A stretch of DNA of 64,000 bases, taken from positions 4,216,001 through 4,280,000 of the forward strand of contig CM102285.1 in NCBI GenBank assembly GCA_046563655.1, written 5' to 3'. The translations under genes and the position numbers were made by a program. The notes beneath the pieces were generated by a model. It was not told the DNA's origin. It saw only the letters and a program-made list of their open reading frames with translations, and did no database searches. Shown one piece after another: positions 12,401 to 57,619 of this stretch (position 1 is its first letter; every line of letters starts with the position of its first letter). The stretch comes from Yuukianura sp. NJ FZ-2021 (lineage: Eukaryota).

Positions 12401-12773
12401 TGTTGTTGCGTTCCTTGGTTTGTGTTGACAGACAGACCGACGTACAAAGGGTTTGTGTCATAATGTAGCAGTTAAGTTTAGCAACACTTAGTAACCAAAA
12501 GTGGTCGACCGGAGTTTCGGAAAATAAATTGAACGGTGGTAGTTTGGTTCCAATATAGTCTTTGTTCTCAAAAATTGCAATGTAAATATAATACAGAGTA
12601 TCAACATTATTTGCAACATTAAATTTTTAAAATGCCTCTACCTTGAGCTACCCTTTCCAACTTATGCTTCTTTTTTTACAACAGAATAAAGTTTTGTGCA
12701 TACCGAGTTCAGAGTCCTGGTGGAGCGAGGAACCACTTTATTACATTAATCAAATAATTTGTGTGTTAATAAA

Positions 12774-21500: not shown

Positions 21501-22087
21501 CCTAAAAAAAATTGCATCTTTTTTTACATTTTGAACATTTCTAAATTTGAAACTTTTTCTCACCTTATTAGATTGCTAACCTGCACTACGTTCAATTCTT
21601 GTTACAATTCGGAGCTGACGTGAACGCAGTCAATGTTTACGGAGAAACCCCTCTTCATGTTCTCCTCAAAGATAAAAATTATGAAGAGCATGAGGTCAGT
21701 TGTTAAACCAATTTGAGAAATGTTTCAAAATGGTCAAAACCAAGATCAGAATTTTCAAAATCTTATTTCTTTTATTAGGTTTCTGAACTAGTGAAGGCCG
21801 GGGCTCATTTGGACCATTACGACGACTATAATTTTTCTCCACTTCAAAAGCTGCTGGAAAAACCTTATCCAGGGTTTCAAACTAATCCGCTGCTGATTCT
21901 GCAATGCATAACTGCGAAGTTCTTGGGCCAGTTCGCTCTGTCGTTGGTCGGCACTTGGTCGCTTTGGTCATTCGTCATGCCAAGGTCGACACTTGCGCCA
22001 GAGAGAAACACAAACTCTACGAGAAGTTGTATCACTACGATCCTTAAATTCAAATTGTCCCGCCAATCGGACTTGCAGCCTTACCAT
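18513..22087 (+). pseudogene. Fem-1-like ankyrin-repeat gene, disrupted
   Basis: Ankyrin exons: CTPLFLAARMGNIAVAQFLV, STPVRSACFM, GNTALHYAV, GDTLLHLA, GETPLHVL, GAHLD; C-terminal LQCITAKFL resembles the Fem-1 box. Lesions: in-frame TAA at 18822-18824, 4-bp duplication (ACTCACTC, ~19197-19204) causing a frameshift, inverted duplication at 20338-20374, and a Polinton inserted at the 3' end. Confidence 0.75.
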
Positions 22088-23925
22088 AGTAGTAAGATAG
22101 TGAAGAACTCCGCATCACTAATTTTAGCACCTTCGTAGGGGTTAGAGTCTGGCCGGACACACTACTAGTAAATACAGGGGGAGGGGGGGGGGGGGGGAGG
22201 AATGACAAAATAAGGAAATATCAAAAACAAAAATGTCGACAAAAAATGTCGATAACAAAAAAGTCGACAACGAGTCAAAAAACAAGTAATTAAATTTGTG
22301 TATAGAAATTACGAACATTGACTCTAGCCTCGTGTCCAAGTGCTCGCAACTACTTTTCAGCGGTTGCCAGATCGAATCTCAAACAGTTTAAAGCTTATGA
22401 TGGAGAAGTTACAAGTACTTAGATACAACACTGGGGTGAATGTTATTACTATTTTTAAATTTTTTAGTTAAGGATTAAAAAAAAGTCCTTGGAGAAATGT
22501 CTTTTCACAAGGAAAACGTTTTTGAAAATTATTTTAAAAAAAGTTCTTGAAGGTTCTTTTCTATAGAAAGACGTTTTTCTTAAAAAGTTCTTTTCAAAAT
22601 AACATTTCTTTAGAAAGAAACTTTTTTGAAATGTTTCAAAATAGCATTTCAAACCGTGTTGCGAGTGGCGCTTAAACAGTGAGTTTTGAAACTAGAAATC
22701 ATCAGTTCTAAAATATTTCAGAACTAATAATTAATATTAGTCGAAACTATTCGTCCTCCAAGGCTATTCTCAAGAGATGGAAGAGGTAAAGCATGAAATT
22801 GCTCTCCGGGTTAGATGTATTTCATGGGAAAGGCGTCCAGAAAAGTGTCAGGATTTTATATAAGTGCAATATATACTCGGGATTTTATATACTCGTCAGC
22901 GTTTAAAATCTATGAAGAGTACAAAGCGCTTCCAGTTACCCAGCTTTGTGATCACAGTCGCTGCAACTACAGCTGTGAATACGCATACTAGATTGAAAAA
23001 CGGTTTGGAAATGGGGTATTTAAATCGGTTGATTTGTACTCAGCTTCGGCAAGGTGATACGTCCTGCCGGTTGATGTGCTTGGAACAGGGCAAATACAGA
23101 GAATATCGCTGATTGGAACCCAACCCTCCTCGACAGCGTCAGACCATCCGAACGAATTTGCCACCTTGGTTCCTCTCCGCATAAACCTTATGAAAACCTT
23201 ATCCTCTTGTGCCGATTCGTCCTCTTCAATCACGCCAATGTGCCACGAGGTGTTCACGATGGAGGCCACATGCTTCCCTACCTAGTACCGCGGTTGCGGT
23301 TCTGTGGCACCTCCAACTTCCCTGCTAACCTTGTAGCGTCTCGCACCGCTACTCTCCAGAAATATGGCCGCAGCTACGCCCTCAGACTCTCATCACTGAT
23401 CAGCAGATCCAACAACTAACCAAAAGACCAAAAAACTCGCCAGATCTAACGACATCGCTGACATAAATATATAAATATATATTCATGAAGCATAAAAATG
23501 ATCATTGAAAAATACAATATAAACACAAACTACTCATCTCCCACTGATCTCTATCCCAGCAACGCACAAAACAGACTGAATCTGAAACTATATAGAAATC
23601 TTATCCTGGTCTCTCACCTCGCCTCTCTTCAAATCTCCCGCAATCCACATCCTCATCTCATCTTACCTCAACATAATCTCTACACTACGCTAACGGATGA
23701 GCAGGCGTCTCAACCTTTGCCATGGTGAAATCAGTTGCTGATGAGTATCGCTGTACTGCAATTTCGTTGCGCTCCAGTGGAATAAATGAGTGGAAACTAC
23801 GCGCCCCTTTTATCGTATCTGCATTGTCGTACATGTATTTAACGTGCAGATTAATATGCTACCAAAAAGTTTATGGTCAGAAAATGTTACTACTTACCTC
23901 TTCTCACTTACTTCCCGCCGGCTTG

Positions 23926-24481
23926 TTAATCTTTTTTGTTTGGAGATTGTCGTTTTGTGTTCTTCTGATAAATGTTTTTTCCGGAGAGGTCACACTTGAT
24001 GGTCTGGAGCTTGAGACTTCGGATTGTGTACATTTTAGGTCTCGGACGGTACACATGAGTAATAGCAGCTCCAGCAGCTTTCTCCTTGCACTTTCCCAAT
24101 ATTTTCTTGTTTGTTGGGGCGTCAAACTTTCCAAACACAAGATGATCTTCCGGATATGCGCTCATTTTGTAGTGTTCCTTTTGCTGCAGCATGTCCTCAT
24201 AAACATCGTTTGTTTGAATATATGAAAGAATCTAAAACAAAATAAAGTTAGAAACTGACAAGACAAGTATAACCAGTACCTGTATCTGTGTATATTAAGC
24301 GACACTTGTCACCATAAAGAGCCTGCATCGCCACTCTGTGATGTCGGTACATGATGCTTTTGGCAAAATCTAAAATGCTGACACCTGTGAAAATTTCTTT
24401 ATTGAGTGTGACTTGGTGGAGCCTCTTCATTATAAAAATGCAAGTTGTTATCACACGCAGGGATTTAAAATTTAGGGCCAT
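23926..24481 (-). pseudogene. Polinton-type DNA polymerase B, C-terminal fragments
   Basis: KEIFTGVSILDFAKSIMY...YGDKCRLIYTDTG (degenerate YxDTDS motif); SAYPEDH...NKKILGKCKE...RPKMY. Confidence 0.8.
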
Positions 24482-25390
24482 TTACAGCATCGGCTTCCAA
24501 ATCCCCTCCACCTAACTGCCTACCCATTGTTTTTAGAAATTGAAAGTCCAGCAAGTTTCTTCGGATGAATTGGAACCGACACCAGTTGTGTCACAGAACG
24601 CTACACTTTAACTTTTGGGAAGTCATAACCGTAAAGTTAATGGAGCAATGAGGTTTGAAGATTAGTGAACTGTCAGATTTCCCACTTTTTGGGTCGTGAG
24701 AGTGACACCCGAGGTCACTCACCGGAACTCCCAAAAGTAAGATAAGATACTGCCCCTCCACTGCCACACCCTATTTTCCCCATCCTACTGCCATGTCGGA
24801 TTTCGGTGGGCCCGGTGGGGCCGTGGGTCACGTATTCCAGGAAACTGAAGAGGAAGCGGAGCCGTTCTAAACGGAGCGGAGCCGAACCCTAACACCCGTT
24901 CTCCCTCACGGATCCCAGACATACGCACCCAATAGCTTAAATTTAACCAGATTTGATGAAGATTTAGAAGAATCCAGTGAAAGATTTGCCTAATTTTCGG
25001 AATTTTCAAACAGAAGTTTTAATTTTCAGTATTTTAATCCCACGTATCACGAAAAAACGCCGGGTTGAGATTGGCACCCCCCCCCCCCCCATAGTCCAGC
25101 AGAGCACAACTTCCCTGCGTGGGCCACGGAGTGACGATGGAGTGAAGAGGAGGTGGGTCCGAGGGGCCGCGCCCCAAGTGACCTCCACTAGCTACAGACG
25201 TTGTCAGTGCGGAACTGACAGATATAACGATTTGAAGTGGCAGTAAATTCGATCGAAAGCAGAGCCGAGCTTTTCCACCATGGTTTAGAAACTATCAAGG
25301 AGAAAGTGAAAGTGAAAACAAATTTGAAAGTGAAAGTGAAGTAACAAACGACAATTGCTGGTTTTCTTTAAGAAAAGGTAACCAGCCGTT

Positions 25391-26554
25391 TCCCGTCTGA
25401 GCCCCCAGTTCTGTCACGCTACTAACACCTCCAACTCTCGGTGGTCCCACCCGAAAGTGCCCCACCGTGGGTTCTAAGTGACCTGATCGGCCACTATTGA
25501 ACCCACATACCTGGGTGATCAGAATCACCCCAGATAGGCACCTGCTGTGCCTGGGAGTAGATCTCCCCTCATAAGATGGTTCCGAATTACCTTGACCCCT
25601 GCAGTTAGCCAAGGGTTAAGATTGCTGATGATGACACAACTACCGGTTTGGTAGCTGTGTAGATCACTCCTAGCGATTTGCTAGAAGTGATGTGCAGTTC
25701 CCGTCTCATCTCTCAAGAGATAGTGAAAGAAGATGAGGAGATTAGGACAGTATGAAGAGAACAGAAATTAGGATTAATGCGATATGCTTTACCTGAGAAT
25801 TCTGTCCGTTCCCGACGGTAGTGCTGTGGGTACAATTTGGTCACGCTGGTCTTACGTCAAGCCGGTGCTCGAACTTGTCCTGATTGCTCTTGGATAGAAT
25901 TCCTTAAGTCCACGCCACGTACACCCCCGGCCAGGAACACACGTGAATCACGCTTCACTCAGACTCTCGCTCACTCTAACTGGTCCCACTACTGGCCATT
26001 TAACAATCCTTGAACTGACGGGACGTTCCGTAACACACAAATAATAAACACTAAATCGTATCTGTTGTAAGAACGGTCGTTGTGGTAATAGTTTAATTGT
26101 CAAATGATTCACTTTGTTGCAAGAACCAAGCCACCAAAGCAAAAATACTTGTAACGTAAATCTCGCTCAAAAGTAGAAGGTGCTCACAGCCAAAGTCCCA
26201 ACTGACCCCTTGTAAAATCCGTGATTCCTTTTTTAGGAATCCGGGCTGAGGGACTGGTGACAAGCAGAAGGCTTGTTTCCTTTCCCTGTCTTTTGTTTTA
26301 ACACAGGCTTCTGTGTTAAGGGTGTCAAAATTTGGGTAGAAGGACACGCTCAATTTATGAGCCTGCCCTTCTGTTTCTTCTAGAAACTTCTGTCCCTTTC
26401 CAATTCATTGGAAGTGGAGCAGAAACTTCTGGAAGAAAGGCGGAGACTTGGTGGGGTCGGTTTGAGCCCACCAGAGGTCAAGCGGATGACCTGGATTCAG
26501 TGGATCGGTCAGAGTCCCATGAATCCAGTGTAGTGGCCATAACAAAGTGTGACA
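25391..26554 (-). mobile_element. LTR retrotransposon 5' LTR plus tRNA-Pro primer-binding site, nested in the Polinton
   Basis: Segment 25412-26554 is bounded by TGTCAC...GTGACA. Four nt downstream on the minus strand is TGGGGGCTCAGACGGGA (25407-25391), a partial complement of the tRNA-Pro 3' end. No second LTR or gag/pol seen. Confidence 0.6.
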
Positions 26555-27840
26555 TGTTATGAGCAACTGACTAAAAAAATTCACCAGAAGTATTTTAAAG
26601 TTTAGGTTAGGATAACCAAATTTTTCTTTTGAAAATTTGAAATCTTACTTCAAATCGCTCTCCACACTCACATAACTTGCGTTGTTTGTGATGGTCGTCA
26701 ATTCTGCTCACTCTACGACCCTCTGGACACCTACAACGCAAAAATTATGCATTGAGTGGATGAAATTTTGTTAAGTGTTCTGCGGCAGATCTCCGTTTTA
26801 ATAGAATTCTACAGTAGTCGGAAATTCTTTGGGATTAATGTAAGCTACAACAAAATAATTTCATTAAAACATGTAAAAACACAACAATATGATCAATTAA
26901 AAAAAATTAAGTACCAGTCATGAAGGCTGGAAGAGTAACACGTTGCCCAGTTTGGCCTATAAATGTAACTCTTCCGAATTTTTTTAAAACGTCTTGGAAT
27001 TCGTCTATGAGATCCGTCGTATTAAACTGATGCGCCTCTAGCGCGGTATCTCTGCAATTAAGATTTCAAATTAAAAAAAATTTTGGCTAAAATTTGGCTA
27101 AGTTAACTTTCGTTGTGTACTAGACAAGAAAGTTCAACAGGTTAACCTAATTCGCTTACGCATAAATAAAAGGGCGCCCCTCCTTCGCCTAACTGCGTCA
27201 GTGCTCCGATATTTCAAATTGGTCCCCGTTCACATTTAACTGTAAAATAAATTAAAATAACATTCATAAAACCATGTACTAATGTTTGGCTAATTTAACA
27301 TCAATGCCAAGAAAAGTTAATTTTGAATAGAGGCAGAGCCTGAAATAAAAATGATAAGCATACCACAGATTTGCAGTCTGATTCCGAGTTCTGCTGTAGG
27401 ATTTAGTAATTTTATAATTTAGTAATAGTAATTTTTGGATGTTTCCCACAGATTCTCGGTAATGTTTTTTTAGCAGCTTAATATCTGCCATAGATGTTGA
27501 AGAATCGACTTCCTTCGTTCTTTCAACCGCAGTACGGAGTTTTTCCATTGGAGCACTTGAAGCCATTATAACTAAGGTTAATGATAAAAAAGTGAGCTAT
27601 TAAAATGTGTTTGAAAGAAACAGTCTTCTGCGTTATTAATACACTTCAAAACTGTGAAATCAGCTGTACCATGCACTTTCCGCTATTTCAAATCCACCGC
27701 GTGGAAGACGGCCACATGACACACACACACTCAGACACATGGCACACCAACATGGGCATTTTTCTTATTACTATTATTATTATTATTATGCACTAACATA
27801 CTAGTCAATTAACTAACTAACCTAACTAACAATAGTCTAG

Positions 27841-28955
27841 TTAACTAACTAACATAACAATTAAAGATGACCAGCGATCAACATCATCCCTACTGAGAAT
27901 GCTCTCAACAAAGTGAGCTCCAGCAGCTTCATCATCGTCTGTCATGTGATAGGATTCACCATGGCGACGTTTTCCCTCAAAGTCAACACAGACCCACGCG
28001 TATCCACAAGGATTGTGAATATTCTGACGACTGGATTCGCCATGACTCATTTTTCTTTTGATCCTGTCATTTTCGCCTTGCGCCGCTGGCGATAGAATTC
28101 ATGATCGCACATGGAGTCAAATTCAATTACGAACACTTCAACATCAGCGTAAAACCGGAATTGTTTGAGTTTGAGCCCACTTGTCAAATTTTAGTTCCGC
28201 CTTATGTTTTCTGGGTATCTGACCTTTTGAAGCCCAAGCGCCGCGCAATATGGAATGTACTCTTCTAACGTTCTTCGAAATTCAAAGTTTGAAAGACAGT
28301 TGCGGCAGATATGCATAGTGCGATGGCTGTTAGGAGACGTCAGAGACGTCGAGATTTCAACTAAGAATGAAATGCGAATTATTACCTTGCATTAGACACA
28401 ACAGATCCACATGAATACGTTTGGCTTCCTTTGAGTTGGTGAGGATATAAATGTTGTTTTGCATGTAGTTAAACAACTCCGGATCTTCTGCTTTGTTTCC
28501 CTTTGATTTTTTGCGGTTGTTGACGTTTCTTCGCTGCGGAGCGCCCGGACCATCCATATCATAACCCAGCACTTTGATCGAGATGTTAGGGTTAAGTTCT
28601 TCTAAACGAGGTAGTTGCTATAAACTAATTGGAAATTGTAGTCCCTGAGTGTTCACTTTTGAAACATGGGGAAGGAGGATCTAACCAGCTTGTCCACTCG
28701 ACACCGGCTTGGTCCTGGAGGAACACCAGCAATTTTGTCATGAGCAAGCACTGATCAGAGAAAACACTTGTTATGAGAGTTTGACACAGAAACTTCAGTA
28801 TTGTTAATATTAACCAAGTTTTGTTGTGCTCTGGTAGAGGAAACGGTGATTCGAGAATTGTGCCAATTTTTGTAAATTGGTAGTTGGCGGTCACGAAATT
28901 GAACTCGGAAATGTGTCCAAGTCCCACCCACTGCCCACGTTGGTAAAGTTTTCAA
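27841..28955 (-). pseudogene. Polinton-type DNA polymerase B, N-terminal fragments (frameshifted)
   Basis: Motifs spread over shifting frames: GSGWDLGHI, INN...NKCFL*SVLA, LEELNPNISIKVLGY, HVDLLCL...SHF, CRNCLSNF, RFYADVE, HNPCGYAW. Confidence 0.75.
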
Positions 28956-29606
28956 TTTGATTGCTCATTTATTGGCCCATGATCGTCCTCACCTTTGGAA
29001 TGCTTTCGTCGGTGAACACGAGATGACGATAAAAAGTGAAACTGCCTCGGTTTGTTTCAACTGAACCGTCGACGTCTGGAGTTTACGCAATTGGTTTTTA
29101 CGAATTTGCAATTGGTATTTTCGTTGAGCTTCCTCTAACTCTTTATTTAATTCAATTGATGACTCCACAGTTAACCGCTAGAGTTCCTGATTCGTCTCAC
29201 CGTGATGATGTACGTTTCGAATACATTGAAAAGCTTAGCTCATATCTGCAACCGTGGCGACGAGGTGTGATGCCGATCGCAATGTCGTCTCCAAAAATAT
29301 CGCGCTCAAAGTCAATTTTTTCGGTGAGTGGTAGTAGTTCGTCGATGCAACAATTCTTGAATAATGTGAGTTCCACCGAAATCGTGAGTGGTGCAATCGC
29401 AGGTAAAACGTTTTTCACAGTAAGGGCGCGCCCAATTGGAAAACTTCTTAGAGTCTCCAGCACAACTCTAAACATTTTTTTTCTTGATGAATTCGAGATG
29501 AACGACATGAGTCTCACCAACCTATTCTTTTTACCATTAAGCCTTAGTGTAATTACCTGTTTACTATTGGTCAAATAAAAATCAAATCAAATCAACACTA
29601 ATAACA

Positions 29607-30712: not shown

Positions 30713-32389
30713 GAAATCAGTTAGGAAACAACTTCATGAGAATAGGTATTCCGTACTTTCTTTTTATTGGATATTTATGATTATGGATTATCGTTAGATT
30801 GATTGATTATTTTCTCTATCGCCATTGATAGGCGTAGGAGTGTGTAGATTAGATGATGATACGATGATAGTTAGAGTGAGAGATGGGAGAGGTTTCAGAC
30901 AAACAAAACTTTGAAATTACTGTTTAAAAAAAGTTTTAAGTTGTCCAGAAATATAGACTAATTGTCAATTATAATTAACCTAAACTGTCATTTCACTAAA
31001 CTACTTTAACGACATTTTTGTTTTCGATATTTTTATATTTCCTTATTTTGTCATTTCCCCTCCCTTGTACTAGTAGTGTGCCCGGCCAAACTCTAACCCC
31101 TACCAAGGTGCTAAAAATAGACACGCAAAGTTCTTAAACTATCATGCTACAACAATTACTTACACACTACAGTAAAGTCTTAGAATTTTTGTTACTTCGT
31201 TTTCTACGAAAAACTGTTGCCACATATAAAAGCGCTAGTCTAGAATTATATCAAATTATTTATTTTTGAGTAAATATTACTAGAATATAAAAATATATAC
31301 TTGTTCCGAAATGTTTAACATTTGTCCTCTGCTTCTGCGCGCATAATCTGAAGTAACCGGTAGAAAAACTTCGTTGTCAAAGTCCAGCAGTCTCCTATCC
31401 TCACGACATTCCGCGGTCAAAAGCTAAAGTAGATTTTTTAACTGTTCAAAATGTTTGGCAACACCGTCATGTCCTCCGATTTTGATTTAGATATGTTTTT
31501 TTTTACATAAAATTAAGTAGTGTTGCCGGTTAAGTTTGTGATTAAGGTGACATAACTTGCACTGGATTACATGTAGGATTGAATGACCCTACGGTTTTGC
31601 AAACCCGTAGTAAAAGAATTTTTTGCATTTAGAGAAACGCATTTTTGCATTCTTGGGATTTTTGTTTTACTTAATATGCTCAACTTCAGTGAGCATGATT
31701 AATATTAGTAAAGTAAAAAACCTGCATCAATCAACACCTTAAACTTTTGGCGGTTCACAAACAACCCTTTAACGGTGGGAATTCAAATTCCTTTCTGAAA
31801 TTACCACAAAACAACGTCAAAAAGTTTGCAAGTTCCAACCTTTTTGAAAGTAACTTTTGAATGTTACAAATCCGTTCACCCTTCTACTGTGCTCCATAAA
31901 GTATCAATTTATTTTTCATAGTTGCAAAAAGAATCATAGCAGAATAAAATTGTCAAACGGCAATGCCGTTACGGCATAAATTGTTTTAACTTTTACTAAT
32001 GTAAGTAATGTATAATCCACACACGTACTTATAATTAAAAAACAGCAATTTTCGCAAATTAATAATTATTAGCGTTTCGATTTTCTATTTTCCAAAAAAA
32101 TGGGAAAACAGTAAAAACTCTAATCCACACGAATTGAAATGTAAAAAATGTAATGTAATTAATTATAATAACACTGATATCTTTACTTCACTAGACTTAT
32201 TCCACAGAAAAGGGTAAACAAGAGCAAATTTTTTAGCGTATCACATGGAAAACAAAAATTACAACCAAACACTATTTTAATTCAAAATTTGCGAAGGGAG
32301 CTTGGAAATTAACTGCAACAAAATTATTTGACTTATTATATAGCATCTACCACGTTTGGCATTAAATGAATACTGAATATGTTATCATT

Positions 32390-33693
32390 CTAAAATGCTA
32401 AGAGAAGATTTATAATTGGTGAAATAACTACTTGGGCCCAAATGAACAAAATGAATTCTTCCGTTTCCAGCAAAGAAAAACTTCCAACTACGATGCGCAA
32501 TGGAGTCATGCTCTTCCAAAATTTTGATTCGTATTCTGAGCAGGATTTCCTTGCTTGGTGACGAGCTAGTTGAATTAAATTTTTAGATAAAATGTGCTGA
32601 TCAGTTGCGATAGAAAGGAAAAGGGATGTACATAGTATTGCAGCCAAAGCGGCAACGACAATAACAAAAACGATCACAAAATGATACTGGTCACTAGCAC
32701 GTATTGCAAAAAATGACAAAACAACAATACCGGTGAAAATATTAATAAAAAATACAATAACTAAATGTCCAAAAGCTACTTCAAATGCTTTACCAATTAC
32801 TTTAACTTTCAAAAAGTCCAAAGTATCTACACAGATTTGGGGTCGAAAACAATTGCCTTCCTCTTCCCGGCGTACTTCACTATAAACATAAAAAAAATAC
32901 TCAAGTTTTATTTAAAACTTAGAAAAAATACTTTAAATTTATTTTATAAAAACTAAAAGCAATAACTGCATGACAAATTCTACTCGAATTACCTTGCGAA
33001 TAATAGATTCTTCAGCAGTTGCTTGGTTGTAAACAAATATATGAAGATCCAATGCAACAGGGTATTACTGACGACCACTCCATGACCAAGGCCAACTGCA
33101 ATACTAAAGAAAGTAAAACACTTAAATATGATGACTAGCGAGTCGTATGTTGTAGACTGCGGGGTACTAAGTTGTGAAGCGGTAAACTCCAAAATATTAT
33201 GGATTGTTGTGAACAGCCCAGGAAATGCCAACGACGCAACGTATATGAATGGCAGAAAAATAAACGGATACGCTATTGACGTAGAGCAGAACTGGAAACA
33301 TATGATTTCAAAAGAGCGCGGCAATTTTCTAGATAAATGGAACATTGAATTGAGAGTAATGTTTGTGACGTTGATGTAACGTTGTCGTGTAGTTGGAATA
33401 AGCATAGTCCATTGTGCCAGCTGCATTATATTACAGATACTGTTTATTCCCAAAGCGATTACTTTTTCAAATTTTGTCGTAGAACCAAAAACGGTTTCGT
33501 AGTACCAACATGCTATAACTGTCCCTAAAACAACCGTAGAAAATACTCCAAACACAGTGAACGCTGTGTTGCCAACAGTGGGAACAATAGTATCAGGCTG
33601 TCCATGTCCAAAGCAGTATTTTACCGGTACGTAGTGCATGAATCTTGTCCAAGTATACATTAACCTTAGCCACAAATTGGTTCGATCAATCAT
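32390..33693 (-). CDS. Divergent multi-pass chemoreceptor-like protein, 2 exons
   Basis: Hydrophobic ORFs 33693-32993 and ~32880-32390; C-terminal KFWKSMTPLRIVVGSF...IINLLLAF parallels the gene at 12774. Confidence 0.6.
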
Positions 33694-34662
33694 AATGCCT
33701 CGACGTTTGGTGATATTAAACGAATAATTGTGGAATAGCGGCAACACGAAGATATAAAGCAGTAATGCCTTTTAAAATTCTTCTTCAGCAAGAAATGTGT
33801 TCTGGATGTTCTAAATAAAATACGTGAGCATATATTTCAAACCTGAAAGAGTCGGTGTCTTACCTTTGGCTATGATTAAATAAATTTTTGTCCATGAATT
33901 TATAAAACATGGTGTTCTCCTCCTCCTTTACATGATGTAATTTTATTTAGAAATGTAAATTACATCTCTAAATCAATTTTTTCTAAAAAAAAAAAACCTC
34001 TAGAATTGCATTTTTAATGACATACTTTTTACAACAATTGGAAATGAATTATTCATTTTTTTCTTCTAAAGCGCATAGGTTATAACGGTTCATGGAAAAA
34101 CTCGTTTTCTAGAAAACATTTTTTCCATCATGCAAAGCATTTAAAAAAATTATTGGTTTTGTTGCTAATTGTGAGTAAATCGAAGGTTTACTGGAAGTTC
34201 AGAATGTTCTGCTTACAAGAAAAGCTCGGAGAAATTGCAAAATTTATTTTTTAGTAAATTCTAGTCTACTAGAGTAATTATTAAAAACGGCATTTTCATG
34301 TCGTGCATTAATGGTCGAACAGAAAATATTTCGGTTTCCATTTTTAGTCAAACGTGATAATTAGTTTAATTTGGATGTTTACTGAAACTTTTATTGATTG
34401 AGAGGAAAGTACTTGGTTGGACGCACACGCAAGTAGCATCCACTCATTATTTTTCAGCGGATGAGGTGGCATTGCCTTTTGAACTCACCGCTCAGGATGC
34501 TGCTATATGTCTTCATCCCTTTGGACAAATTTTGCTCGACGACACATAGATGTTGAATATTTTTGAATAATTAGATGCAATGTACTATATAAGAATCTAA
34601 TTCAATCATGAAAAAGAATCAAAGTGCTTTTGATTCAACAATTTTTTCAGTGTCTACTTTTG

Positions 34663-37600
34663 CTATTCCGCAGATGTGTCGTAGATTAGCCTTCCGAGCT
34701 GCATTTCCCAGTTCATACCAACTGCTACCTGAAATGATTGGAAGATCTTAATAGTTAAACACAACATATAGTACTAGATTAGTTTTTATTGTTGTTAAAA
34801 AAAACATCATTAAGTTTGAATCTAATAAATTAAACTGAAATTGTTCCTCATATTACCTTGACTAATGATGAATGTAGATTTTGATTAGTATCGTCTGGCG
34901 GTTGTTTTGCTGGAGGCATACAGACAAGCTGCGTTTTGCTAAGGGAAACTAAGTTACAAAAACTGTTACCAATGGTGACAACGAAACTGGATTCTTCACT
35001 AGCCGAGTTCAACATTGTTCCCTACAAGCCAACCGAGGCAGGTAAGAAATTTCGCAAATAACAAGTTGTCATTAGTTTTTTCTTAGCAGTTTCTTACTTC
35101 CAATGTCAAATAATCCGCACTGAAATTTTTCACTCCTTCGGTAAATGGTAGGAATTTTGGATTTGGGTAAAGGTGCAGATGGAAATCTCCTTTTCCCTCG
35201 GAAGCATTTTGGACAGGAGCCCAAACGTTGTCAAACACAAATCCAAAGTCTACTGGAACGTAACCGTCGCCCTCAGCAAGTGTGAAGTCTGGGGTCTGAT
35301 ATATAGTGGGAGTGATGCAGACAATTGTTGTATTGTCGGTAACGCTGCAAGGCTATTTGAAAAAAAATTTAAGTAAATAAAGTGAAGCATTTAATATTAC
35401 TATATTATATTATTGGATTAGCCAAAGTTGGTGGAATAAAGTATATAAATACGGTTTAGATACGAATATTTAGTTCAGATATATGTAGGGGAGGAAGGTA
35501 TACTTGGAATATTTGGTTAGGAATAGTTTGTATATTACAGAAATCACTTACACCCTTGTAGTTCGTTCGGTTATATGTTATGAACATATCAATCTCATTC
35601 ACAATAGCGAAGTTACTCCCTTTGATGGTTACCAGCAACCCGCCCGCAACAATGCTTTTAACCGGTTTGTCCTGCTAATACAGCAAAAAATGTGTGCAAA
35701 TAACTCATTACCTCTTATGTACAGATATCTGTATGATACTGCTGTATTTGAAATAAAATATTTTTTTTATCGAATTGGGAATTTAATATTTTTGCTGGTA
35801 TACCGACTCCAACCGGATTTTCGGATCCTCAACATAATAAAACCCAGATGTTGAACGTCGAAAACTTTCATCAAAATTTATCGAGACTTCATTTTCTCCA
35901 ATTGCTTTCCCACCACCGGTTCTGCATTGAATTACATGTGATTCCCTCCTATAATGTTAATATAATACCACATGTGTTTAGTACCAATTTTTTTTAAGAT
36001 TAAAGATTAACAAACAGTAATTGTTTTATATAGGAAACGAAACTTGGCGTACAAAATGATGGTGCAAGTGATTTGCCCGATGAGTACTTCGCAACTACTT
36101 CCAGCATCCAAATTTTCTCCATAAATTGAAACTTTAGTTCCACCGGCAAGGGGACCTTTGGTTGGTACCAGTCTTTGAATTTTTGGATCAACGAATCTGT
36201 ATTCGGTGATTGACACAGCTTTATAAGGTCCTACTTGTACCAAGACTAGACCATGTTTAGTCTGATTTGTTCCGAGTTCTCGAAGTCGACAGACAATTTT
36301 ATGCGTTGTTTCGTAAAGATGTGGATACGGATCACAAACCGTATTTGCCACAATAACGCCACCAAAAACATCCTAGAAAGCCAAAATTAGAATACACAAT
36401 ACATAACAACGCTATAACTTAATTTTGATAACAAATCCTAACAGCATAGCTACTGAAAAGTACTGAAGTCAGTTTCTATCTCAACATAACAAAACATATA
36501 CCACAACCTAACAAAATACTACATCGGTGTGGTTTTCCAAAATATCAAAAATTTTGCTACTGTATTAACATGTGAGCATGTTGAGATATTAGCAACAAAT
36601 GTCGCCACGACACAAAAAATATGGACATTATACGCAACGTAAACCAATGTACAACATGCCATGCGTTAACAGTACGTAGAGTGATAAAATGTGTAAACCA
36701 AACACACCTCAACAGTTCTCCCGAAATTGATACCAGTGATGGTAACATTTGTTCCGCCTTCTAGTGGTCCCGAGCTTGGACTAAAACTTGTAATTTTAAT
36801 GTCTGCGCAAGTTGCGTTTCTGTTTAACCACGTTCCGTTGCATTGGCCTTGAGTTTGACACAAGCGTGACCGCTGACACCAACCACAGTTGTACATAGGG
36901 TCCATTGTAAGGCACATTCCACAGTTGTCGGCCATTGATTCGCAACGGAAAATCGTTACTAAATACAATAAAGATAAATATAATGTTCATAAATTGATTC
37001 ACTTTAGTTTCATAATAAATATAACTATTTTCAAAGCGTATACTTCGAACATTGTCCATATTATCCAATGGCTTAGGAAGGTGTCCAGAGGATGTCACGC
37101 CAAAAGTAACTGCACTGCTGGAAGCATTTGAGTCATACTTAAACATAAACGGATCGCACCGGAGAACGCCTTCAGAGTATTGCCCTCGCACAACAAACAC
37201 TCGGCCTTCGATAGCGTAAACGCATGACAGCTTTGCTTCATACATGATGTAGAACTAAAAAAATAATTAGGAAGATGTTCAAATCATTGCCACGTCAGCT
37301 TTTGGCGAATTGAAAAATTCGAATAATCTTTAGCAAATCATTAAGTATTTTAATAAATATTAGCAGAAATTGATGACCGAATGTAATATTAATTTGTAAA
37401 TCTACGTGAGGATGTCATACCTCCGAACAATGATTTTCAGTTGTTAAGTGCAACTTACGGCAACATTCTCCAATTTCACCTCAACTTGGTATTGGCTTTT
37501 GTCTGGAATCAAAATTTCAGGAGATGCATTATTGTGCACAAAAAATCGTGGACAGAATCCAGGACCAGGTCGGAGGCTTGGACTATCACGCTATTTGAAT

Positions 37601-40591
37601 TTTACAAAAAAAAAATTCATTGGTGGTTGTGTACATGTCTACTTGCCAACATATTTTAAATGGAACTAGTGGAAGTGCTTCTAGAGATCCCACGTCGAAA
37701 GGCTTATTACTACATACATAGCTACAATATGGAAATTTGCAAGCACTTACACTAAGTCCTGACACTATAACGTCATTGCGGCAATTTTCCTGTGTGTCAT
37801 ATGTACATCGATACTTGTCCATACACCAATCACAGGGGAAGAGTGAGCTGACGCATGACGTACAAGATTGGTAAGTGTTACAGTCGTAAAAGATGAATTC
37901 CGTTGTAGCCAAATTTGTTGATAAAGATCCGTTTTCTAGAAGAACTCGCACCGAAAACAAAGCTGTGATACTGTCTATGAAAATAGATATACAATACTTT
38001 ACAAATATGTTTTTTTTAGGAATACCTGTTTCACTTGTGGTGTATTTTCATTGTATTGTGTACTTTGTCCATGCGGAATCTGTGGCAACACTGAAGTAGG
38101 TGGTGAATAGCATCTAAATCCTTGTGAAGTCAAATTCGCATAGGAGTTGAGTTCCCTCCCGTCGTGAAATTGAAACGAGCAGAAAAATGTTTCTACTCGC
38201 GCAGGTAACGGATCAATGTTGACCGTCAACTGGCATATGCGAAAAATAATTTTTAAAGATTATGATCATTCGGTTTCTGGTGCGCATCTTTCCGTAAAAA
38301 GAATAAGGTTTCACCATTCTGGCAAAGGAAATTTGCAGTTGATTGGGAACGACATGTTTAATCGTAGTACATTCTCCTCTGTTGTATGAAATCCAAGGTT
38401 CTGTAAATCTTGAAGTATTTTGGCAATTCTCCTGAGTCGTGCACCTAAAAACAAAGTGTTACATGCAACTTTTTAAAATCTCGATGTATTGTCAGAAACT
38501 CTTGCTTACATATTATGTAGGTAACACCAACCGCAATAAGGATCACTAGCTCCTGTGCACGGACTACAAGTTGTATACTCTGAACAATTGTGAAGCACGA
38601 CTTTTGAAACCTAAGGAAAGTTTTGATATTTACTATTTGGGGGTCAAAGTTGTGTTTTACGAGCAGATATATTTTCTTTACGTCACTCATTTTACAACGG
38701 ATGTATTGTCTTCAGGAATTGTTCGGTAAATTATTTAGTATTTTTAAAGACAAGGTTAGATTTAGTTTTGACAAAACTCGTACCTTCCGATCAGTCATTA
38801 CGTAAATATGCGATAGCTCATTATCAAAAATCATGTCAGCATGGACTTTTTGCCCGTTGTCAATAACGAGGTCATCGTATTCGGAATTTGTTTTACCGCT
38901 GGTGACAAGCACCTAACAATGCAATAATTAAATGTTTAGTGGCAGTCATAATCTCCCAGAAACTAAACCTAAATAAGAAATTAAAAGCGTGTATACTTTC
39001 TTGAGGTGACCATCCATGGTGCCCAAGAATGCAACAGTGTGAATTCCTGTTGAAACTACTGCAACTGAGGTCAGTAACGTCGGAAAAACTGTCGATGTCA
39101 TCGCTACCACTGGTTTTTGGCCACCAAGCGGCGTATTCACATCGGAACCGCAGAAATCGTCAGTAATATTAACATTCTACAAAAGACAGCCAAGCTCAAA
39201 AATACAATTCACATTCGCAGCATAAAGAAATTGAGTAATACGCACAGTGGACACACACGGCGCATCCTCAGTAATGAAGCCTAGCCCCCTTCGTCCTTTT
39301 CCTTGAAAGCAACGTTCAATATTTTCTTGAAATTTTCTACGAATATCGACCAGAGAGTAAACGCAAAGCCCACTTTGGGCCGTAGCATTAGCGCTGTTTT
39401 GAGAACCTTCGGTTGCGAATACAGCAAACAAGACATCTGTTGACGCTGTAATGCCCAGGTTATTAGCAAGGTCGGAGCCAGGCTTTCCCACATACGCAGC
39501 CTGTACGAGATTGAACAGCACTCCGGTTTCACTAACGCAATCGATGGGAATTTCTGTGTAAGAGGAGTAACCCAAATCGTTCTGGCAAACACGAACTAAT
39601 TTGGAAATACGCGACGAATTTAGCGCGATGTAATCCTTGCGTTGAGTTGTCAAAAAGTACGAAAATCCTTCAGAGCTAAACCCGTATATGTAGTTGATTG
39701 AATAATTTGAGCGCATGCGGATATGCATTTGTGCTCCATCAGTCGCCAATCCACTGGACTTGACCACACTAAACTTGTCTTGTGGGTTTAGGCTTCGGCT
39801 AGAAACAGCCGGGATCCCATCGGAGTATTCCGAGTAAGTAGAAGCGACGTACAGAACCTAGATAGTGCAAAATACATGAGGTAAAAAATTTTAATTTTTT
39901 TCCCGCCATTTTCGAGCAAAAACAATTTCCTTTTGTCAAAACGAATGCCTGGTAAATTCTTATTTTATTCATCTAGTATAAATTAATTAGGTTAACCGCG
40001 TTAACCGTACTCCTGTTTATTGCGCGCAAACGACAATAACTTTTCCTGTTCACAACCAAAATTGTAAAATCTTACTGACGAATTTGGCTGTGATATTGGA
40101 CCGGGACCAATAAATGCAGCAGCACTAGACACTTCATCGGTAGGAACAATTCGTTCGCTGGAACATATTAATTTCCGGTTTAAAGTATTGTTTAACGCAA
40201 ATGTACAACAACTTCCATTATTCTCGGTCCCACAGACAATCAACTGATTCCCATTATAGTCTACTGCGAGAACCTTGTTGACATTCTGCGGCAAAGTGTG
40301 TATTACTGGTTCGACTGGACACGAATCACACTCATCATACGTCTCGGGAATTTTTTTCTTTGAGATAGTGTCAATTTTATCCAGTAGGTTCAAATTTGGA
40401 TTCAATTTATACAGGTGATTCACTGCGCCGACGTACAAGACACCCGTATTCTTATGCACGACTAGGTGATTGTTGATAGTTGAATTTAGAGCTCCGTCGT
40501 CAGTGAATATAGCTACAATATGTCCACCACTACCACTGCACCGACACAGCAAAACAAGCGTGCCAAAAATGAGCACTTTTGTCAACTCCAT
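34663..40591 (-). CDS. Plexin-A-like protein: signal peptide, Sema, PSI and IPT domains; stops before the TM helix
   Basis: Signal peptide MELTKVLIFGTLVLL; Sema motifs LYVGAVNHLYKL, SKLVRVCQND..Y.SYTEIPIDC, HTVAFLGT; PSI CNTYQSCTSCVSSLFPCDWC and CGMCL...CGWC; IPT GPLEGGTNVTITG and KGPLAGGT. The last exon, 34728-34663, reads VAVGMNWEMQLGRLIYDTSAE*. Confidence 0.88.
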
Positions 40592-45871: not shown

Positions 45872-46437
45872 ATGAACATTCCAAAAGCGTTGGTTTTCGC
45901 GTATGTTGCTGGAGTATGGTGCACCGGTAAGATAAATAACATTAACACCTAACATTCTTAAATACTGTTATAACTACTGGATTTTAGATTACACGGCATA
46001 GAATACATTTCGACTTTTGCTGATGCTGTTCCTCACGTTTGCGTACATATTCTTTTGTAGGTGCTCAGTCTCAACCACGAGACAATCTCACTATAACGAT
46101 AACCCACCACAAACGTGGACATTGTAATGGAGAAGTGGAACTGTTTTGTCATCCTACTGGCGGGACACATCCAAGACCTACTGAAGCATGCGCAAAACTC
46201 GATGAACTTGCAGAGACGAGAGAAAACTTTGCGCCACACAACGAGCAAGAGATTTGCACTATGCAGTACGGTGGACCTCAACGGGCTACAATCACGGGAA
46301 CCTGGCGAGGATACCATGTCAATAGAGGATTTGACAGAACTAATGGATGTGGGATTCGTGAGTATGACAAATTCGCAGTTGTTCTGGACATCAAAGGCTG
46401 CTCTAGTTTTAAAGGTTTCAAAGGTTCTGGACATTAA
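45872..46437 (+). CDS. Secreted subtilisin-inhibitor-like (SSI family) protein, 143 aa, 2 exons
   Basis: Signal-peptide exon 45872-45926; intron 45927-46060; SSI motifs LTITI...LFCHPTGGTHPRPTEACAKL...CTMQYGGP..ATITGTWRG..V...F...NGC. Confidence 0.85.
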
Positions 46438-47691
46438 AGGCCTTAGATGTAAAACTTGACTACACTAGAATTAATTACCAACGTTCCCCTTGGTTTTGAC
46501 TTGCGCCAAATTAAAAAATCTTCACTATGTTCTCCTTAATTTTGCTTTTTCTTTATAATTGATTCGTCCTAAAATTTTGAAATTATTGGCATTTCAACAA
46601 TTTTCTAAATTTTGACAACAGACATGAATGAAGCGGATTGTACAAGTAATCTGTAGCGTTGTTGTTGGTAGTACTAGCGTTAAAGCTGTTAGGTACCGTT
46701 CAACATACCTTTCTGGTTACATTACAACCACCAACCAACAATCTAACGTAAACGTAACCCGTAAACTTAGAACGTGACCTTTAGAGGTGAATTAATTTTG
46801 GAGTGTTCTCATTCTTCCCAGGTAGTCAATTGAAACTTAACCTCGATTACTTTAAACGCGAGCACAGTTGTTTTAATATTTTACCACGATTCTAACTACA
46901 TCGTTTTCTTTCGTTGGGTTTTTCCTGTGAACTACATCGTATTTATGTAACTCCGATTCTAAGAAAACTTTGGGCTTTAGTTCGGTTGACAATTGGACTG
47001 ATTCAAATTTAATTTATTATATTTAATATATTACTAGAATAGAATGGCATACGTTGAAGAATCGGTAAAGAAAATTCAAATAACGCTTTCCAGTTTGTGA
47101 GATTCTTGGCGAGATCATTTTTTCTGGGATTTAAGTTTTATTTAGATTAGATTAGAGCGAAACCTAGATTAGATTTTTATTTTTTTGCGATGCTGCTTCT
47201 TATGTTTGCGGAATGCGAAGTCGTACTACATGCGTAATATGCCTTACTCGGACAGGGACAATTAAGAGAGACTGAAATATTCCATGAGACATGCTCAGCG
47301 TCGTCGGCCCCAGGTCAACAGGTCAAACCCAAGTAAGCTTACGGTAATTATGTAATAGGATCTGGACGCAGATAAGACGAACCAATTTTGTAAGCTATGC
47401 CAACGAATTATTTTTAGCCCACCGAAAAAAAGGGTCCCTGAAAAAATGTTCTCAATTTTAACCCTCCAAAAAATGGGTCCCTCAAAATCTAAAAAAGTTT
47501 TCCGAGAATATGAAGCGAAAAAACAAAAACAAAACAAACAATGCAGTCAACAATGCGGAATGGATATTCACGTTTATATAAAAATAATAAATAATAATTA
47601 CATAGTAAACAAATAATAAATAATAAATAATAAATAAAAAATAAATAATAAATAAAATGAAGTTAAAAAAATTAGAATAAAAAATAAAATT

Positions 47692-47800
47692 CCCTTAACC
47701 AGAGTACTTTTTCCGCTCTGACTCATCCCGCTGATGCATATCGTAAAAGGAGCACGTAAATGAGCATCAAATGTTGCCCCGGATAACTCGTCCATAAACA
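47692..47800 (-). pseudogene. Truncated Polinton/A32-type packaging ATPase (Walker A only)
   Basis: DAHLRAPFTICISGMSQSGKSTLVKGIL, cut off at the inner edge of the left TIR. Confidence 0.6.
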
Positions 47801-48586
47801 GCGATCCTTTGCCAGGCTCTTCCGATACATATTCCACAGGAGTCAAGTGATAAGCAATGTTGTCGTTAACAGGAATGGGGACTTGCATAGTCTTGCATGT
47901 CGATTTGTGACGTTGAAAGTTATCCGACCGTCCAAACTTTTTTGAACAACCTGAACAACTCTATTCCATTCCATTCCATTCCAGCAAATGCCAGCTGATT
48001 CGAAGGACACAAAGGCATTGGAAGTTGAGGCAAAAGGCGTGCAAGAACACCAGCCGACGGAGTTGCCAAAACCGATTCTGGAGCAAAAACACTTCGATTT
48101 TTCAAACTTTCTAAAACCAGGACAAAACTTGCTTCCGCTTTTTGTGGAAGAGTGCAAGAAGAGAAGAGTGGAAGCCTCCGGCCAATTGGGAATAAATTTC
48201 AACACAACAAAAATTTACAATTCTATAAAGCATTGATTTATTATTTTGTGTTTAAATTTTTATTTAAATTTACAATTTAAATTCCCAATATACGAATTAC
48301 CTGAATTGAGGAGGAGGAGTATGGGCATGCTCTTCAGTTATCCGAGGAGGAGGGTAGGAGGAGGAGTATAGGCATGAAGACATTCAGGAACTCTGGAAAG
48401 CTTCAGCACTTCAATTCATCAACCAAAATCGTCAGCTAAGTTAGAATAGCTTGTGTCGCATTACTTCATCAGCGTTCCTTGGCATCGTAGGTTACCAGTT
48501 TAGAAGCGGAAGATGAATTAGTAGAGCTAACGCTTGACTTTTGTGGCAGACAGAAAGTAATTCAAGAACAGGTTGGATACAACGCC

Positions 48587-48916
48587 GTGGATGTTACAAA
48601 GTTTTCAAGAAGTGACTATATCGGGAAATGGGCAATTCTACGCATCAAGGGCCCAAAAATTTCCAAATCGCTTCATAGCGTTCACTGTATCGCTGTATTC
48701 TTTGATGGAACCGATGTCGCCATATACGAGCCGCTGAAGAAATTAGAAACTGCAATTGTGAAGCCGTCGAAGAAACGGCACCCGTTTCCCTTGGGTATAC
48801 TTTTAAAGCATTTATCCAATTCTTCTTATGCAGTAATAAATGGTGAACAGGACTTCACACAATTGGATTGTGTCTACAGAACATGCGAGTTTGTTCTGTC
48901 AAAATGTCTTGCATGA
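48587..48916 (+). CDS. Possible adenain/Ulp1-like cysteine protease remnant
   Basis: His/acidic/Gln/Cys residues in the expected order: VHCIAVFFDGTDVAIYEPL...INGEQDFTQLDCVYRTC. Confidence 0.4.
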   Translation: MDVTKFSRSDYIGKWAILRIKGPKISKSLHSVHCIAVFFDGTDVAIYEPLKKLETAIVKPSKKRHPFPLGILLKHLSNSSYAVINGEQDFTQLDCVYRTCEFVLSKCLA

Positions 48917-50242
48917 TTAATTGTTATTGCTTAAATTTAATGTTTTAATCATTTAACGTTATTTTTAATATTTATTCAACTATATTTCAATTTTATTTTT
49001 TATTCTAATTTTTTTAACTTCATTTTATTTATTATTTATTTTTTATTTATTTATTATTTATTTACTATGTAATTATTATTTATTATTTTTATATAAACGT
49101 GAATATCCATTCCGCATTGTTGACTGCATTGTTTGTTTTGTTTTTGTTTTTTCGCTTCATATTTTTGGAAAACTTTTTTAGATTTTGAGGGACCCTTTTT
49201 TTGGAGGGTTAAAATTGAGAACATTTTTTCAGGGACCCCTTTTTTTTCGGTGGGCTTAAAATAATTACGTGAAGTCACCCCCGAACACTCTACTGACACA
49301 ACTACTAATTTTTGCATTTTAGTAGGATTTAGCAGAAGTTCAATTGCAGAATTCATACTAACTTTCCGAAGGTATTGTTTGTTTGTTAATTTTCAACGCG
49401 TGTGAAACAGCAATTCAAATCAACACATCTTGATGTATGCATGGAAAATTTAAACTGTTGAGCAACTAAAACTAAAAGTTATCGAAACAATTATTTCCAA
49501 TTCTTTTTTTTCTTGAAATTACTTGGATATTGTCCATTTTAATTGGCATGTGCCCGGAGTTTATAAAATTTGTAATTCTTCGAACAGACAGAAGAATAGC
49601 CTTTGCAATTCCAACAAAAATTCAAACATTTTTATCATTCTTTTATTGGTACAACAGTTTTAATGAGCAGATTTGAAACCCTTTTGATATATCCCCCGTA
49701 AACGTTATTATAATTTAGAAATTTGAATTGAATAAAATTGAATTGAATAAATGAGGTTCTTCCGTCTTCCCTCTCCCGTTTCACCTGCCAGGTTGATATT
49801 TCCACCAATTTCTGAGGATTAGTTCTATACACTTGGGAAACAAGCAGATGAGTACAGTCAACAGTGCTACAGTCTACTTCAACCGAATATGTTCTCTTTT
49901 TCTCCAATGTCCTTGTCCATGTCCACCCACATGTGGTCCAAAATAAAGATTTAGAGACAGCGTTTGTTATTTTTAGTAAATTTGAAATTTTTAACTGTGT
50001 AAAGTGTAAACACCCGATTATTAAAAGATTACAACTACAAGACGCGAACTTAACAAACTTCGAACTTTCACAATTGCTGCTAGATTATTCGTTGAAAATT
50101 CTAACAAATTTACGCACTCAAACCTGGTTGATAGTTTGTCGATTTCTGGAGGGAGAAGGACATTTGTTTTTAACACTTCCGGTTGGATCTGCTTTACTCG
50201 GAATTCAAGTCATCCATTGTAGAAGATACAGCCGAGGCGGTG

Positions 50243-51739: not shown

Positions 51740-55420
<3,681 letters not shown>

Positions 55421-55595: not shown

Positions 55596-56418
55596 TTAGT
55601 CAGGATTCACCAGATTGACAGGACCGTCGAATCCATTATCTGGAATGTTTTCCAAATAGGTTATGTACTCCTTTGGAACGCCGTGTTCTTTAGCACCACG
55701 AACCATGACTGATTTGTAGATTTTGGATGGCTTCTGACTTGGTCCGTCGGCAGCAATTGAATCATTTCTTGTTTTCTCTGTTAGCTGATACGCCAAGCAT
55801 TCGTGGTAAGCCCCGTCTATTTGAGCGTTGACATATATCCGCTTGTACACTCCCGCTTCAACACCTTCCTGTCTTAAATGAAATGATTTTTATTGTTCTT
55901 TCAGAGCCAGAACGAAGTGAATGTTCGTCACGACGATTACTACACGGCTCACATTCAAAATGTGCAACAAATATTCGCCTAACGTTTTTCAGATGTAATG
56001 GCAACCTTACTTGTCCAAGTTTTCGCGATCGTATTTCTCCACTTCCCATAAGACGCCGTAAACGTGAGAACTGTCGCGATCAGGAACTGGAATCATATTG
56101 GCAGCGGCTCCGCCCCAGCGTTTACTTTGGAAGAAGAACTCCAATTGATATCCCTGAATCAAAAAATATAAATACATCGATCAAATTCTCAAGAAGAAAC
56201 TCTTAACCTTGTGACCTCACCTTGAGAAGGCCCACGGCTTTGAAGACAGCACTTTTGTTATGCACATGTATCCGCTCAGACGACATGTTGCTGCCGTATG
56301 CGAAGTATAAGAATTTTGTCTGTGGATTGAGTCCTTTGGTCATTTTGTTAAGTGCCCCAAATAATTGTACAATACGGACTGGAGGGAGACGGTGAAGAAG
56401 GTGACTGAACTGTTTCAT
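55596..56418 (-). CDS. GGCT: Gamma-glutamylcyclotransferase, 3 exons
   Basis: FLYFAYGSNMSSERI; WGGAAA...VYGVLW...LDKQEGV..GVYKR; PSKIYKSVMVRGAKEHGVPKEYITYL. Confidence 0.9.
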
Positions 56419-56848: not shown

Positions 56849-57619
56849 GTTAATTTTTTTTTATTTTTGAATTTTTAAATATTTAGTTTACTAATAAAAC
56901 TATACCGATGCAGTGAATTTTAATTCCACAGATTAGAGGAAAACGAGAGAATAAAATTTTTGGCTTCCTAATTCAAGAAATGTAATGTTGCATTTCTTCG
57001 TTTTACTTGTTTTGTAAACGATTACGCTAAAAATTAAATTTAACACGAGTTTTATTCATTTATTTTCAGATACCGAAACATTGAGGTTCATATTAATTTA
57101 TTTTATTTCTGTTTTACTTTTAAGTTATGCGGACGTGGCTATATATTTGATGAAATTTTTTTTGCAAATTTTGTTTTCTTGATGTTCTAATTTTATTGGC
57201 TAGTGGTTTGGCTACTGAAATTCTGATTTAAAAAATTTCCAATCCTATCAGTAAAGTGACAAAGAGATGATGTAAGGTGGGCTGGCTACTGCCTCCGATA
57301 TCGATTAAAAATTCTTATTGATTTGTTCATGTACTATGTAGGTATTTACGTTTTGCCCAACAACGTGTTTCCGCCAATCCCTCGTGACGTGGGTGTGGTA
57401 AAATATTTTTGTGTGGCACCTTGCACGGGTTAATTTCTCAAAACTAATATTTTATCAACAAAAAATATTGGCAGGACATGACGAAGCGACGAAAACTGCG
57501 AGATGGGTAGATGTGGATTCGTCTGGACAAGCTGAATTCGTGTAAGTTCAAAATTTACTATTTTTGAAATAATACGGACTCAGTTTATTTTTGAATTGAT
57601 TTGTACTTTATTTTAGGCA

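Follow-up and report, generated by a model that had tools for sequence, protein, structure and literature searches.

In a 64,000-nucleotide (nt) window of the genome of the springtail Yuukianura sp. NJ FZ-2021 (GenBank assembly GCA_046563655.1, contig CM102285.1, positions 4,216,001 to 4,280,000) we found a gene encoding the ectodomain of a plexin A that ends where the transmembrane (TM) helix should begin. The window contains no N and sits inside a 15.3-Mb contig, here called C3. The spliced gene model comprises 17 exons on the minus strand, from 40591 to 34663, with a coding length of 3723 nt and a product of 1240 amino acids (aa). All 16 introns are of the GT-AG type and there is no internal stop. 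The protein ends 4 residues past the last IPT strand with a TAG at 34665-34663, and a second in-frame TAG follows two codons beyond the first. This confirmed the initial annotation of the window, which had described open plexin-A ectodomain exons with intact splice sites through the last IPT repeat, followed by this TAG. Some exons had been left untranslated at that stage; a search for disabling mutations in all 17 exons and 16 introns found no disabling stop, frameshift or broken splice site. With respect to plexin-A identity, the closest solved structure to exon 2 was Drosophila PlexA (6fkm, E 7e-56), and the Pfam families matched were Sema (PF01403) and TIG (PF01833). The features of the locus are given below in window coordinates. 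Exons 4 to 7, 9 to 11 and 13 to 15 are based on the gene model, a spliced alignment and intron positions in common with PlexA; for the other features the basis is named in the line.

40076..40591, minus strand: exon 1, with the ATG, a predicted signal peptide (about aa 1-20/22) and the first part of Sema (51% identical to exon 1 of PlexA)
39246..39857, minus strand: exon 2, Sema, including remodelled loops at about aa 176-216 (PF01403, structure match)
38997..39176, minus strand: exon 3, extrusion region of Sema, where a sequon at N379 is new (gene model, column comparison)
38784..38912, minus strand: exon 4, Sema
38510..38610, minus strand: exon 5, end of Sema, PSI1
38315..38444, minus strand: exon 6, PSI1/IPT1
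38064..38229, minus strand: exon 7, IPT1
37751..37974, minus strand: exon 8, IPT1/PSI2, with a well conserved stalk loop (PSI2 71% identical to PlexA)
37459..37590, minus strand: exon 9, PSI2/IPT2
37044..37254, minus strand: exon 10, IPT2
36708..36958, minus strand: exon 11, PSI3/IPT3
36053..36372, minus strand: exon 12, IPT3/IPT4 (PF01833)
35804..35948, minus strand: exon 13, IPT4
35552..35671, minus strand: exon 14, IPT5
35098..35352, minus strand: exon 15, IPT5/IPT6
34857..35021, minus strand: exon 16, IPT6 (PF01833)
34663..34728, minus strand: coding part of exon 17, with the last IPT6 strands, the 4-residue tail and the TAG (tblastn, intron position in common with PlexA)
34390..34395, minus strand: first AATAAA past the stop, a weak candidate poly(A) signal at chance level
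32277..34585, minus strand: upstream DNA and a two-exon multi-TM gene (33693-32393), where TM and GAP exons would lie (homologous to a tandem cluster on contig C7)

The boundaries of exons 2 to 15 and the acceptor of exon 16 were reproduced independently by an automatic spliced alignment, for which the full-length paralogue PlexA of the same genome served as guide. The aligner split exon 1 at a gap in the guide and placed implausible short exons past exon 16, which we rejected as spurious; tblastn gave them no support. Exon 17 was backed by tblastn, with 11 of 17 residues the same as in PlexA, as well as by its shared intron position.

Searches of the assembly (98.7 Mb in 22 contigs) with exons 1 and 2 as queries revealed three plexin loci, namely the copy on C3 and two loci on contig C8 at 9.42 Mb and 11.01 Mb. 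The locus at 9.42 Mb encodes a full-length PlexA (1923 aa), including TM helix and GAP, and the locus at 11.01 Mb was taken as PlexB because its identity is lower (40%) and it has GAP exons at 11.07 Mb. The ectodomain-only copy showed 66% identity to the former and 40% to the latter. The PlexB-like locus (C8:11014470-11072923) is about 58 kb long, compared with about 8 kb for PlexA. The genome also has four Sema loci that are not plexins, on C4, C5 and C7. The suggestion that the copy is a paralogue was thus borne out, with separate full-length PlexA and PlexB genes on C8. Position and phase of all 16 introns are common to the ectodomain-only copy and PlexA, all 47 mature cysteines of PlexA are kept, and 680 of 1222 residues (55.6%) are identical in a full-length alignment. 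The closest named relative of exon 2 was Allacma fusca (65% identity; among the best 120 of 335 matches), and the PlexA ectodomain of Yuukianura itself is 77.8% identical to Allacma PlexA. In trees the ectodomain-only copy was sister to its own PlexA with support values of 95 and 93 in the Shimodaira-Hasegawa-like approximate likelihood ratio test (SH-aLRT), and its branch (1.1-1.3) was 10-14 times longer than that of PlexA (about 0.1). An older duplication was not rejected by the approximately unbiased (AU) test (p-AU 0.178). When changes were polarised with Allacma, 350 were unique to the ectodomain-only copy versus 39 to PlexA, a roughly 9-fold acceleration. Synteny with the PlexA region on C8 was not detected; at protein level only the plexin exons matched, and a single DNA match lay 19 kb outside the window. 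The ectodomain-only copy is an old, intact duplicate of PlexA.

The copy lacks the TM helix and the cytoplasmic GAP/RBD region, so it is not a plexin receptor in the functional sense. Its highest 19-residue hydropathy was 1.85, versus 3.3 for the TM helix of PlexA, and its C-terminal tail is polar with no hydrophobic stretch. A glycosylphosphatidylinositol (GPI) anchor was rejected on hydropathy because of this polar tail, and read-through of the stop was rejected because the second TAG would prevent it from adding a TM helix. The counterpart of exon 17 in the full-length PlexA on C8 continues straight into the TM helix. The plexin GAP family (PF08337) had 13 matches in the genome, all on C8 at the PlexA and PlexB loci. 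A tblastn search with the PlexA tail against 94 kb around the window gave nothing significant (one match, E 0.14), in agreement with the earlier observation that no TM exon precedes the next gene, whose ATG at 33693 was also found as described. No spare copy of a plexin TM/GAP region was found in the assembly, where the PlexA TM exon matched the two C8 loci and, weakly, C7 (E 0.35); the genome-wide searches scored top candidates only, which makes this absence strong rather than absolute. At the N-terminus a hydrophobic core is present, with a Kyte-Doolittle (KD) value of 2.98 for the 10-mer from residue 6, the hydropathy basis of the predicted signal peptide. As predicted initially, the copy probably makes a secreted receptor ectodomain, and one that cannot signal itself.

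Judging by its substitution pattern, the copy is under long-term constraint and is probably not a fresh pseudogene. A pairwise Nei-Gojobori comparison with PlexA over 1222 codons, a check that the initial annotation had proposed, gave a nonsynonymous divergence (dN) of 0.34, far below a synonymous divergence (dS) of about 2.7 that is near saturation. Four-fold sites were identical at 112 of 306 positions, with 80 expected from composition, and introns showed no clear similarity to their PlexA counterparts (lowest p 0.04 among 16). The reading frame has stayed open across 19 alignment indel events. Of 300 neutral simulation runs, none remained intact at 0.05 substitutions per site; at 0.02 substitutions per site, with substitutions only, 12 of 300 did. 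Because neutral frames decay this fast, either selection maintains the copy as it now stands or the break is very recent.

The DNA downstream of the stop bears on how the truncation came about. In the alignment with PlexA the stop falls on a TTG codon, a few residues short of the TM helix, which suggests a point change followed by long decay. This is not significant, as the DNA past the stop compared with the PlexA TM exon gave p values of 0.35, 0.15 and 0.33 for 40, 96 and 180 nt. A recent nonsense mutation was excluded, because TM and GAP exons would then still be visible past the stop. About 80-96 nt past the stop starts a copy (67-77% identical in long matches) of a tandem unit on C7, which consists of upstream DNA and a multi-TM gene equivalent to 33693-32393. 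For a recent deletion, which is possible, the endpoint would have to fall no more than a few tens of bases from the domain boundary. With regard to the AATAAA at 34395, 37% of shuffles of the first 300 nt past the stop also contained one, and the motif was not in the aligned C7 copies shown. The two-exon multi-TM gene itself (32393-33693, minus strand) belongs, as a dispersed member and together with up to about 870 bp of DNA upstream, to the C7 cluster, whose tandem genes lie at 1.70-1.73 Mb and 1.81 Mb. For this gene no Pfam family reached the cut-off; we presume that it is gustatory-receptor-like. A similar-looking gene is located in the window at 12750-14153 (plus strand).

Parallel truncations were found in other arthropods. 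In a database search limited to proteins of 466-1486 aa, we inspected 13 candidates without GAP among the best 120 of 137 matches. Three of these, from a sawfly, the salmon louse and the mite Dinothrombium, end at the boundary of IPT6 and TM; of the others, two diverge inside the last strand like intron run-ons, four end earlier and four have a TM helix. The sawfly protein, from Neodiprion pinetum (1234 aa), ends at the last IPT6 strand. Each of the five diprionid species with a full-length PlexA among its listed proteins also has such a separate copy (XP_046483187, XP_046620655, XP_015509998, XP_046425300 and XP_046745324; 1233-1238 aa), all being database gene predictions compared as protein records. 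These predicted proteins share 93.4-94.1% of residues with their own PlexA and 90.4-97.7% with each other, versus 97.7-99.8% among the full-length PlexA of the same species. They form one group (SH-aLRT 90) that spans two genera, and joining them with the springtail copy was rejected (p-AU 9e-31). Sawflies appear to have reached the same truncation independently. The diprionid copies are 95-100% identical to their own PlexA in the N-terminal half and 77-83% near the C-terminus, a gradient that suggests gene conversion or selection holding the ligand-binding end in step. The PlexA proteins of Lepeophtheirus salmonis (1259-1261 aa) and Dinothrombium (1259-1267 aa for both taxa overall) end just before the TM helix and are possibly further cases or split gene models. 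A literature search combining Neodiprion and plexin yielded no paper.

To assess the binding surfaces, we aligned 35 full-length PlexA proteins and compared the 525 columns that are conserved in no fewer than 90% of them and also in the PlexA of Yuukianura. The ectodomain-only copy retains 393 of these, including 20 of the 22 conserved extrusion columns and 36 of the 45 in PSI2, where the loop with the head-to-stalk residue is conserved. Residues were related to PlxnA2 numbering by an alignment offset of 31, which reproduces A396 and F690/E692. The residue equivalent to A396, Thr376, is kept. In PlxnA2 the substitution A396E abolishes Sema6A binding (PMC4308982), residues F690/E692 are treated in PMC4980550, and the head-to-stalk contact is reported to reach Drosophila PlexA (PMC7327498).

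These data are best explained, in our view, by a duplication of PlexA at the DNA level from C8 to C3 with introns kept, which would probably be later than the split from the Allacma lineage. In the exon that links the last IPT strand to the TM helix a stop would have been gained, the exons for TM and GAP would have been lost, and selection would have retained a folded, glycosylated, ten-domain secreted ectodomain. The soluble product would damp semaphorin-PlexA signalling by competing for semaphorin through a retuned ligand face of probably weaker or shifted affinity, and/or would dock onto PlexA via the conserved PSI2 stalk loop. We infer expression, secretion, a binding partner and antagonism from the gene's features, and we give this account of a secreted, non-signalling damper an even chance of being correct.

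Several observations weigh against a semaphorin-competing damper. Changes in the Sema domain are clustered, with 19 of 39 conserved columns changed in aa 148-216 versus 23 of 163 elsewhere (permutation p 0.0004, scan-corrected, for a region picked after inspection). Of the same 39 columns one is changed in Allacma and none in each of the five sawfly copies. This region also carries a deletion of 3 residues and an insertion of 2, and beside the A396-equivalent residue there is a new sequon, N379. The remodelled loops map by alignment count to D193 and F221 of PlxnA2, which are presumably Sema6A contacts. Since nowhere in the Sema domain is erosion stronger than in the putative ligand-facing loops, semaphorin binding may be retuned or lost. 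The long branch further indicates that constraint is much relaxed, and dN/dS, being pairwise, cannot date the truncation. Orthologues with the same stop in related species, which the initial annotation had named as a check, were not found in database searches that are weak for unannotated eukaryotic genes. The search with exon 2 returned only ordinary PlexA/PlexB or fragments (best 120 of 335 matches), with exon 15 none of 24 candidates scored, and the closest plexin to exon 1 among cluster representatives had 47% identity (best 150 of 348). Metagenome contigs contained one locus with 57% identity, again in a search type weak for such genes. The best database identities to the ectodomain-only copy were no higher than those of ordinary PlexA proteins. 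Of the initial proposal of a soluble semaphorin trap or ligand, the intact paralogue with predicted secretion stood, the trap is put in doubt by the eroded loops, and nothing specific was found for a ligand.

The clustered remodelling of aa 148-216, not seen in any sawfly copy, might instead indicate a secreted protein outside the semaphorin pathway, one that kept the ring scaffold and uses its rebuilt propeller face to bind something new, be it matrix, cuticle, a microbial ligand or another. The excess of copy-specific over PlexA-specific changes would fit such a protein, as would the 13 of 22 sequons at positions without one in the Yuukianura or Allacma PlexA. The extrusion region and Thr376 are largely kept, however, relaxed selection alone could yield much of the divergence, and no partner is indicated, so we consider this explanation unlikely, if still a serious competitor.

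More doubtful again is a recent relic, that is, a divergent full-length second PlexA that lost its 3' half by deletion or rearrangement and persists undecayed and functionless. The C7-cluster-like DNA so close to the stop implies that the junction is near, the pairwise dN/dS cannot tell whether selection acted before or after the truncation, and the lack of an orthologue would be in line with such a history. A relic must, however, date back less than about 0.02 neutral substitutions per site, and of about 8 kb the break must have hit just the few tens of bases that leave exactly the full ectodomain. The stop on the PlexA TTG codon likewise speaks for a point change and long decay (suggestive, not significant), and the same endpoint persists in two sawfly genera. 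That the truncation is only apparent, caused by an assembly mis-join or by a splice that joins exon 16 or 17 to some distant TM exon, is very improbable. In its favour are three hydrophobic phase-0 acceptors within 7 kb downstream, all inside the neighbouring gene, and a GT located 10 nt into exon 17. Against it, the N-free window sits inside its contig, the assembly yielded no spare plexin TM/GAP exons and skipping of exon 17 would delete conserved IPT6 strands.

Taking the springtail and the other arthropods together, we tentatively propose, at slightly less than even confidence, that ectodomain-only PlexA genes may be unrecognised and repeatedly evolved secreted regulators of arthropods, cut at the end of IPT6 in the springtail, in diprionids and perhaps in the salmon louse. 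The sawfly copies would then be young true traps, and the springtail copy an old one whose face was rebuilt for a different semaphorin or a new partner.

Other features of the window lie outside this locus. On the plus strand, an open reading frame (ORF) at 46024-46434 encoded a subtilisin-inhibitor-like SSI domain (PF00720, E 1e-13). We take the SSI family to be mainly actinobacterial, which would make this ORF a candidate for horizontal transfer. Two long ORFs at 15278-17644 (plus strand) encoded a U-box followed by VWA, Vwaint and Vint/Hint domains, an architecture that we believe to be known from fungi, plants and protists. One long ORF at 57617-58567 (plus strand) encoded an FkbM-type methyltransferase (PF05050) with an N-terminal hydrophobic stretch. 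Exons of a rhodopsin-family G protein-coupled receptor (7tm_1), presumably vasopressin/inotocin-receptor-like, were present at 600-6400 (minus strand). Further genes included leucyl-tRNA synthetase exons at 51900-55400 (plus strand; weak Pfam match), an AIG2-like gene at 55599-56418 (minus strand) and an ankyrin-repeat gene at 18900-22100 (plus strand). Short ORF fragments at 24250-29600 and 47300-49400 resembled decayed mobile-element sequence; among them were a zinc finger plus P-loop (weak matches) at 47601-47960 and a stretch duplicated at about 47360 and 49060.

Compared with arthropod Plexin A (Drosophila PlexA 6fkm/6fkn, Allacma fusca CAG7720399 and the PlexA on C8), the springtail copy has the same signal peptide and Sema-PSI-IPT ten-domain ectodomain, with all cysteines and 16 introns in common. 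It differs by lacking the TM helix and GAP/RBD, by evolving about 9-fold faster and by the remodelled loops in aa 148-216. The diprionid proteins, named 'plexin-A2-like', are likewise separate PlexA copies that end at the last IPT6 strand, lack a TM helix and evolve faster than full-length PlexA; they differ in their independent origin, their 93-94% identity to their own PlexA and their intact ligand-face columns. Drosophila SDR offers a parallel from another receptor family, as it is also a separate receptor-duplicate gene without TM and signalling domains, with parent introns kept and a secreted product, and PMC7253209 cites experiments showing its binding and antagonism, which are predictions for the springtail copy. 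As with SDR, the separate locus on C3 coexists with an intact receptor gene, the PlexA on C8. The short form of human Plexin-B1, which we take to be a shorter splice product and not a full ectodomain, comes from the receptor gene itself and not from a locus of its own. It is a partly secreted plexin extracellular fragment proposed as a decoy (PMC1838422). Sponge plexins whose intracellular domain is truncated, and Met-LP, also have the ectodomain uncoupled from GAP; the former are described as retaining a shortened intracellular part, the latter carries a kinase instead, and neither is described as anchorless (PMC6374515).

Plexin architecture has been described as conserved across animals (PMC6374515, PMC10084454), and soluble plexins occur in the literature as engineered reagents or as short forms of receptor genes. 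We found no description of a separate ectodomain-only plexin gene in the literature searched, which excluded most subscription journals and supplements. If true, a dedicated gene for a complete soluble plexin ectodomain, arisen at least two times with the same endpoint, would represent a natural extracellular brake on semaphorin signalling, comparable to SDR for insulin. The young sawfly copies with their intact face and the old springtail copy with its remodelled face would then provide a natural series for what a soluble plexin ring binds.

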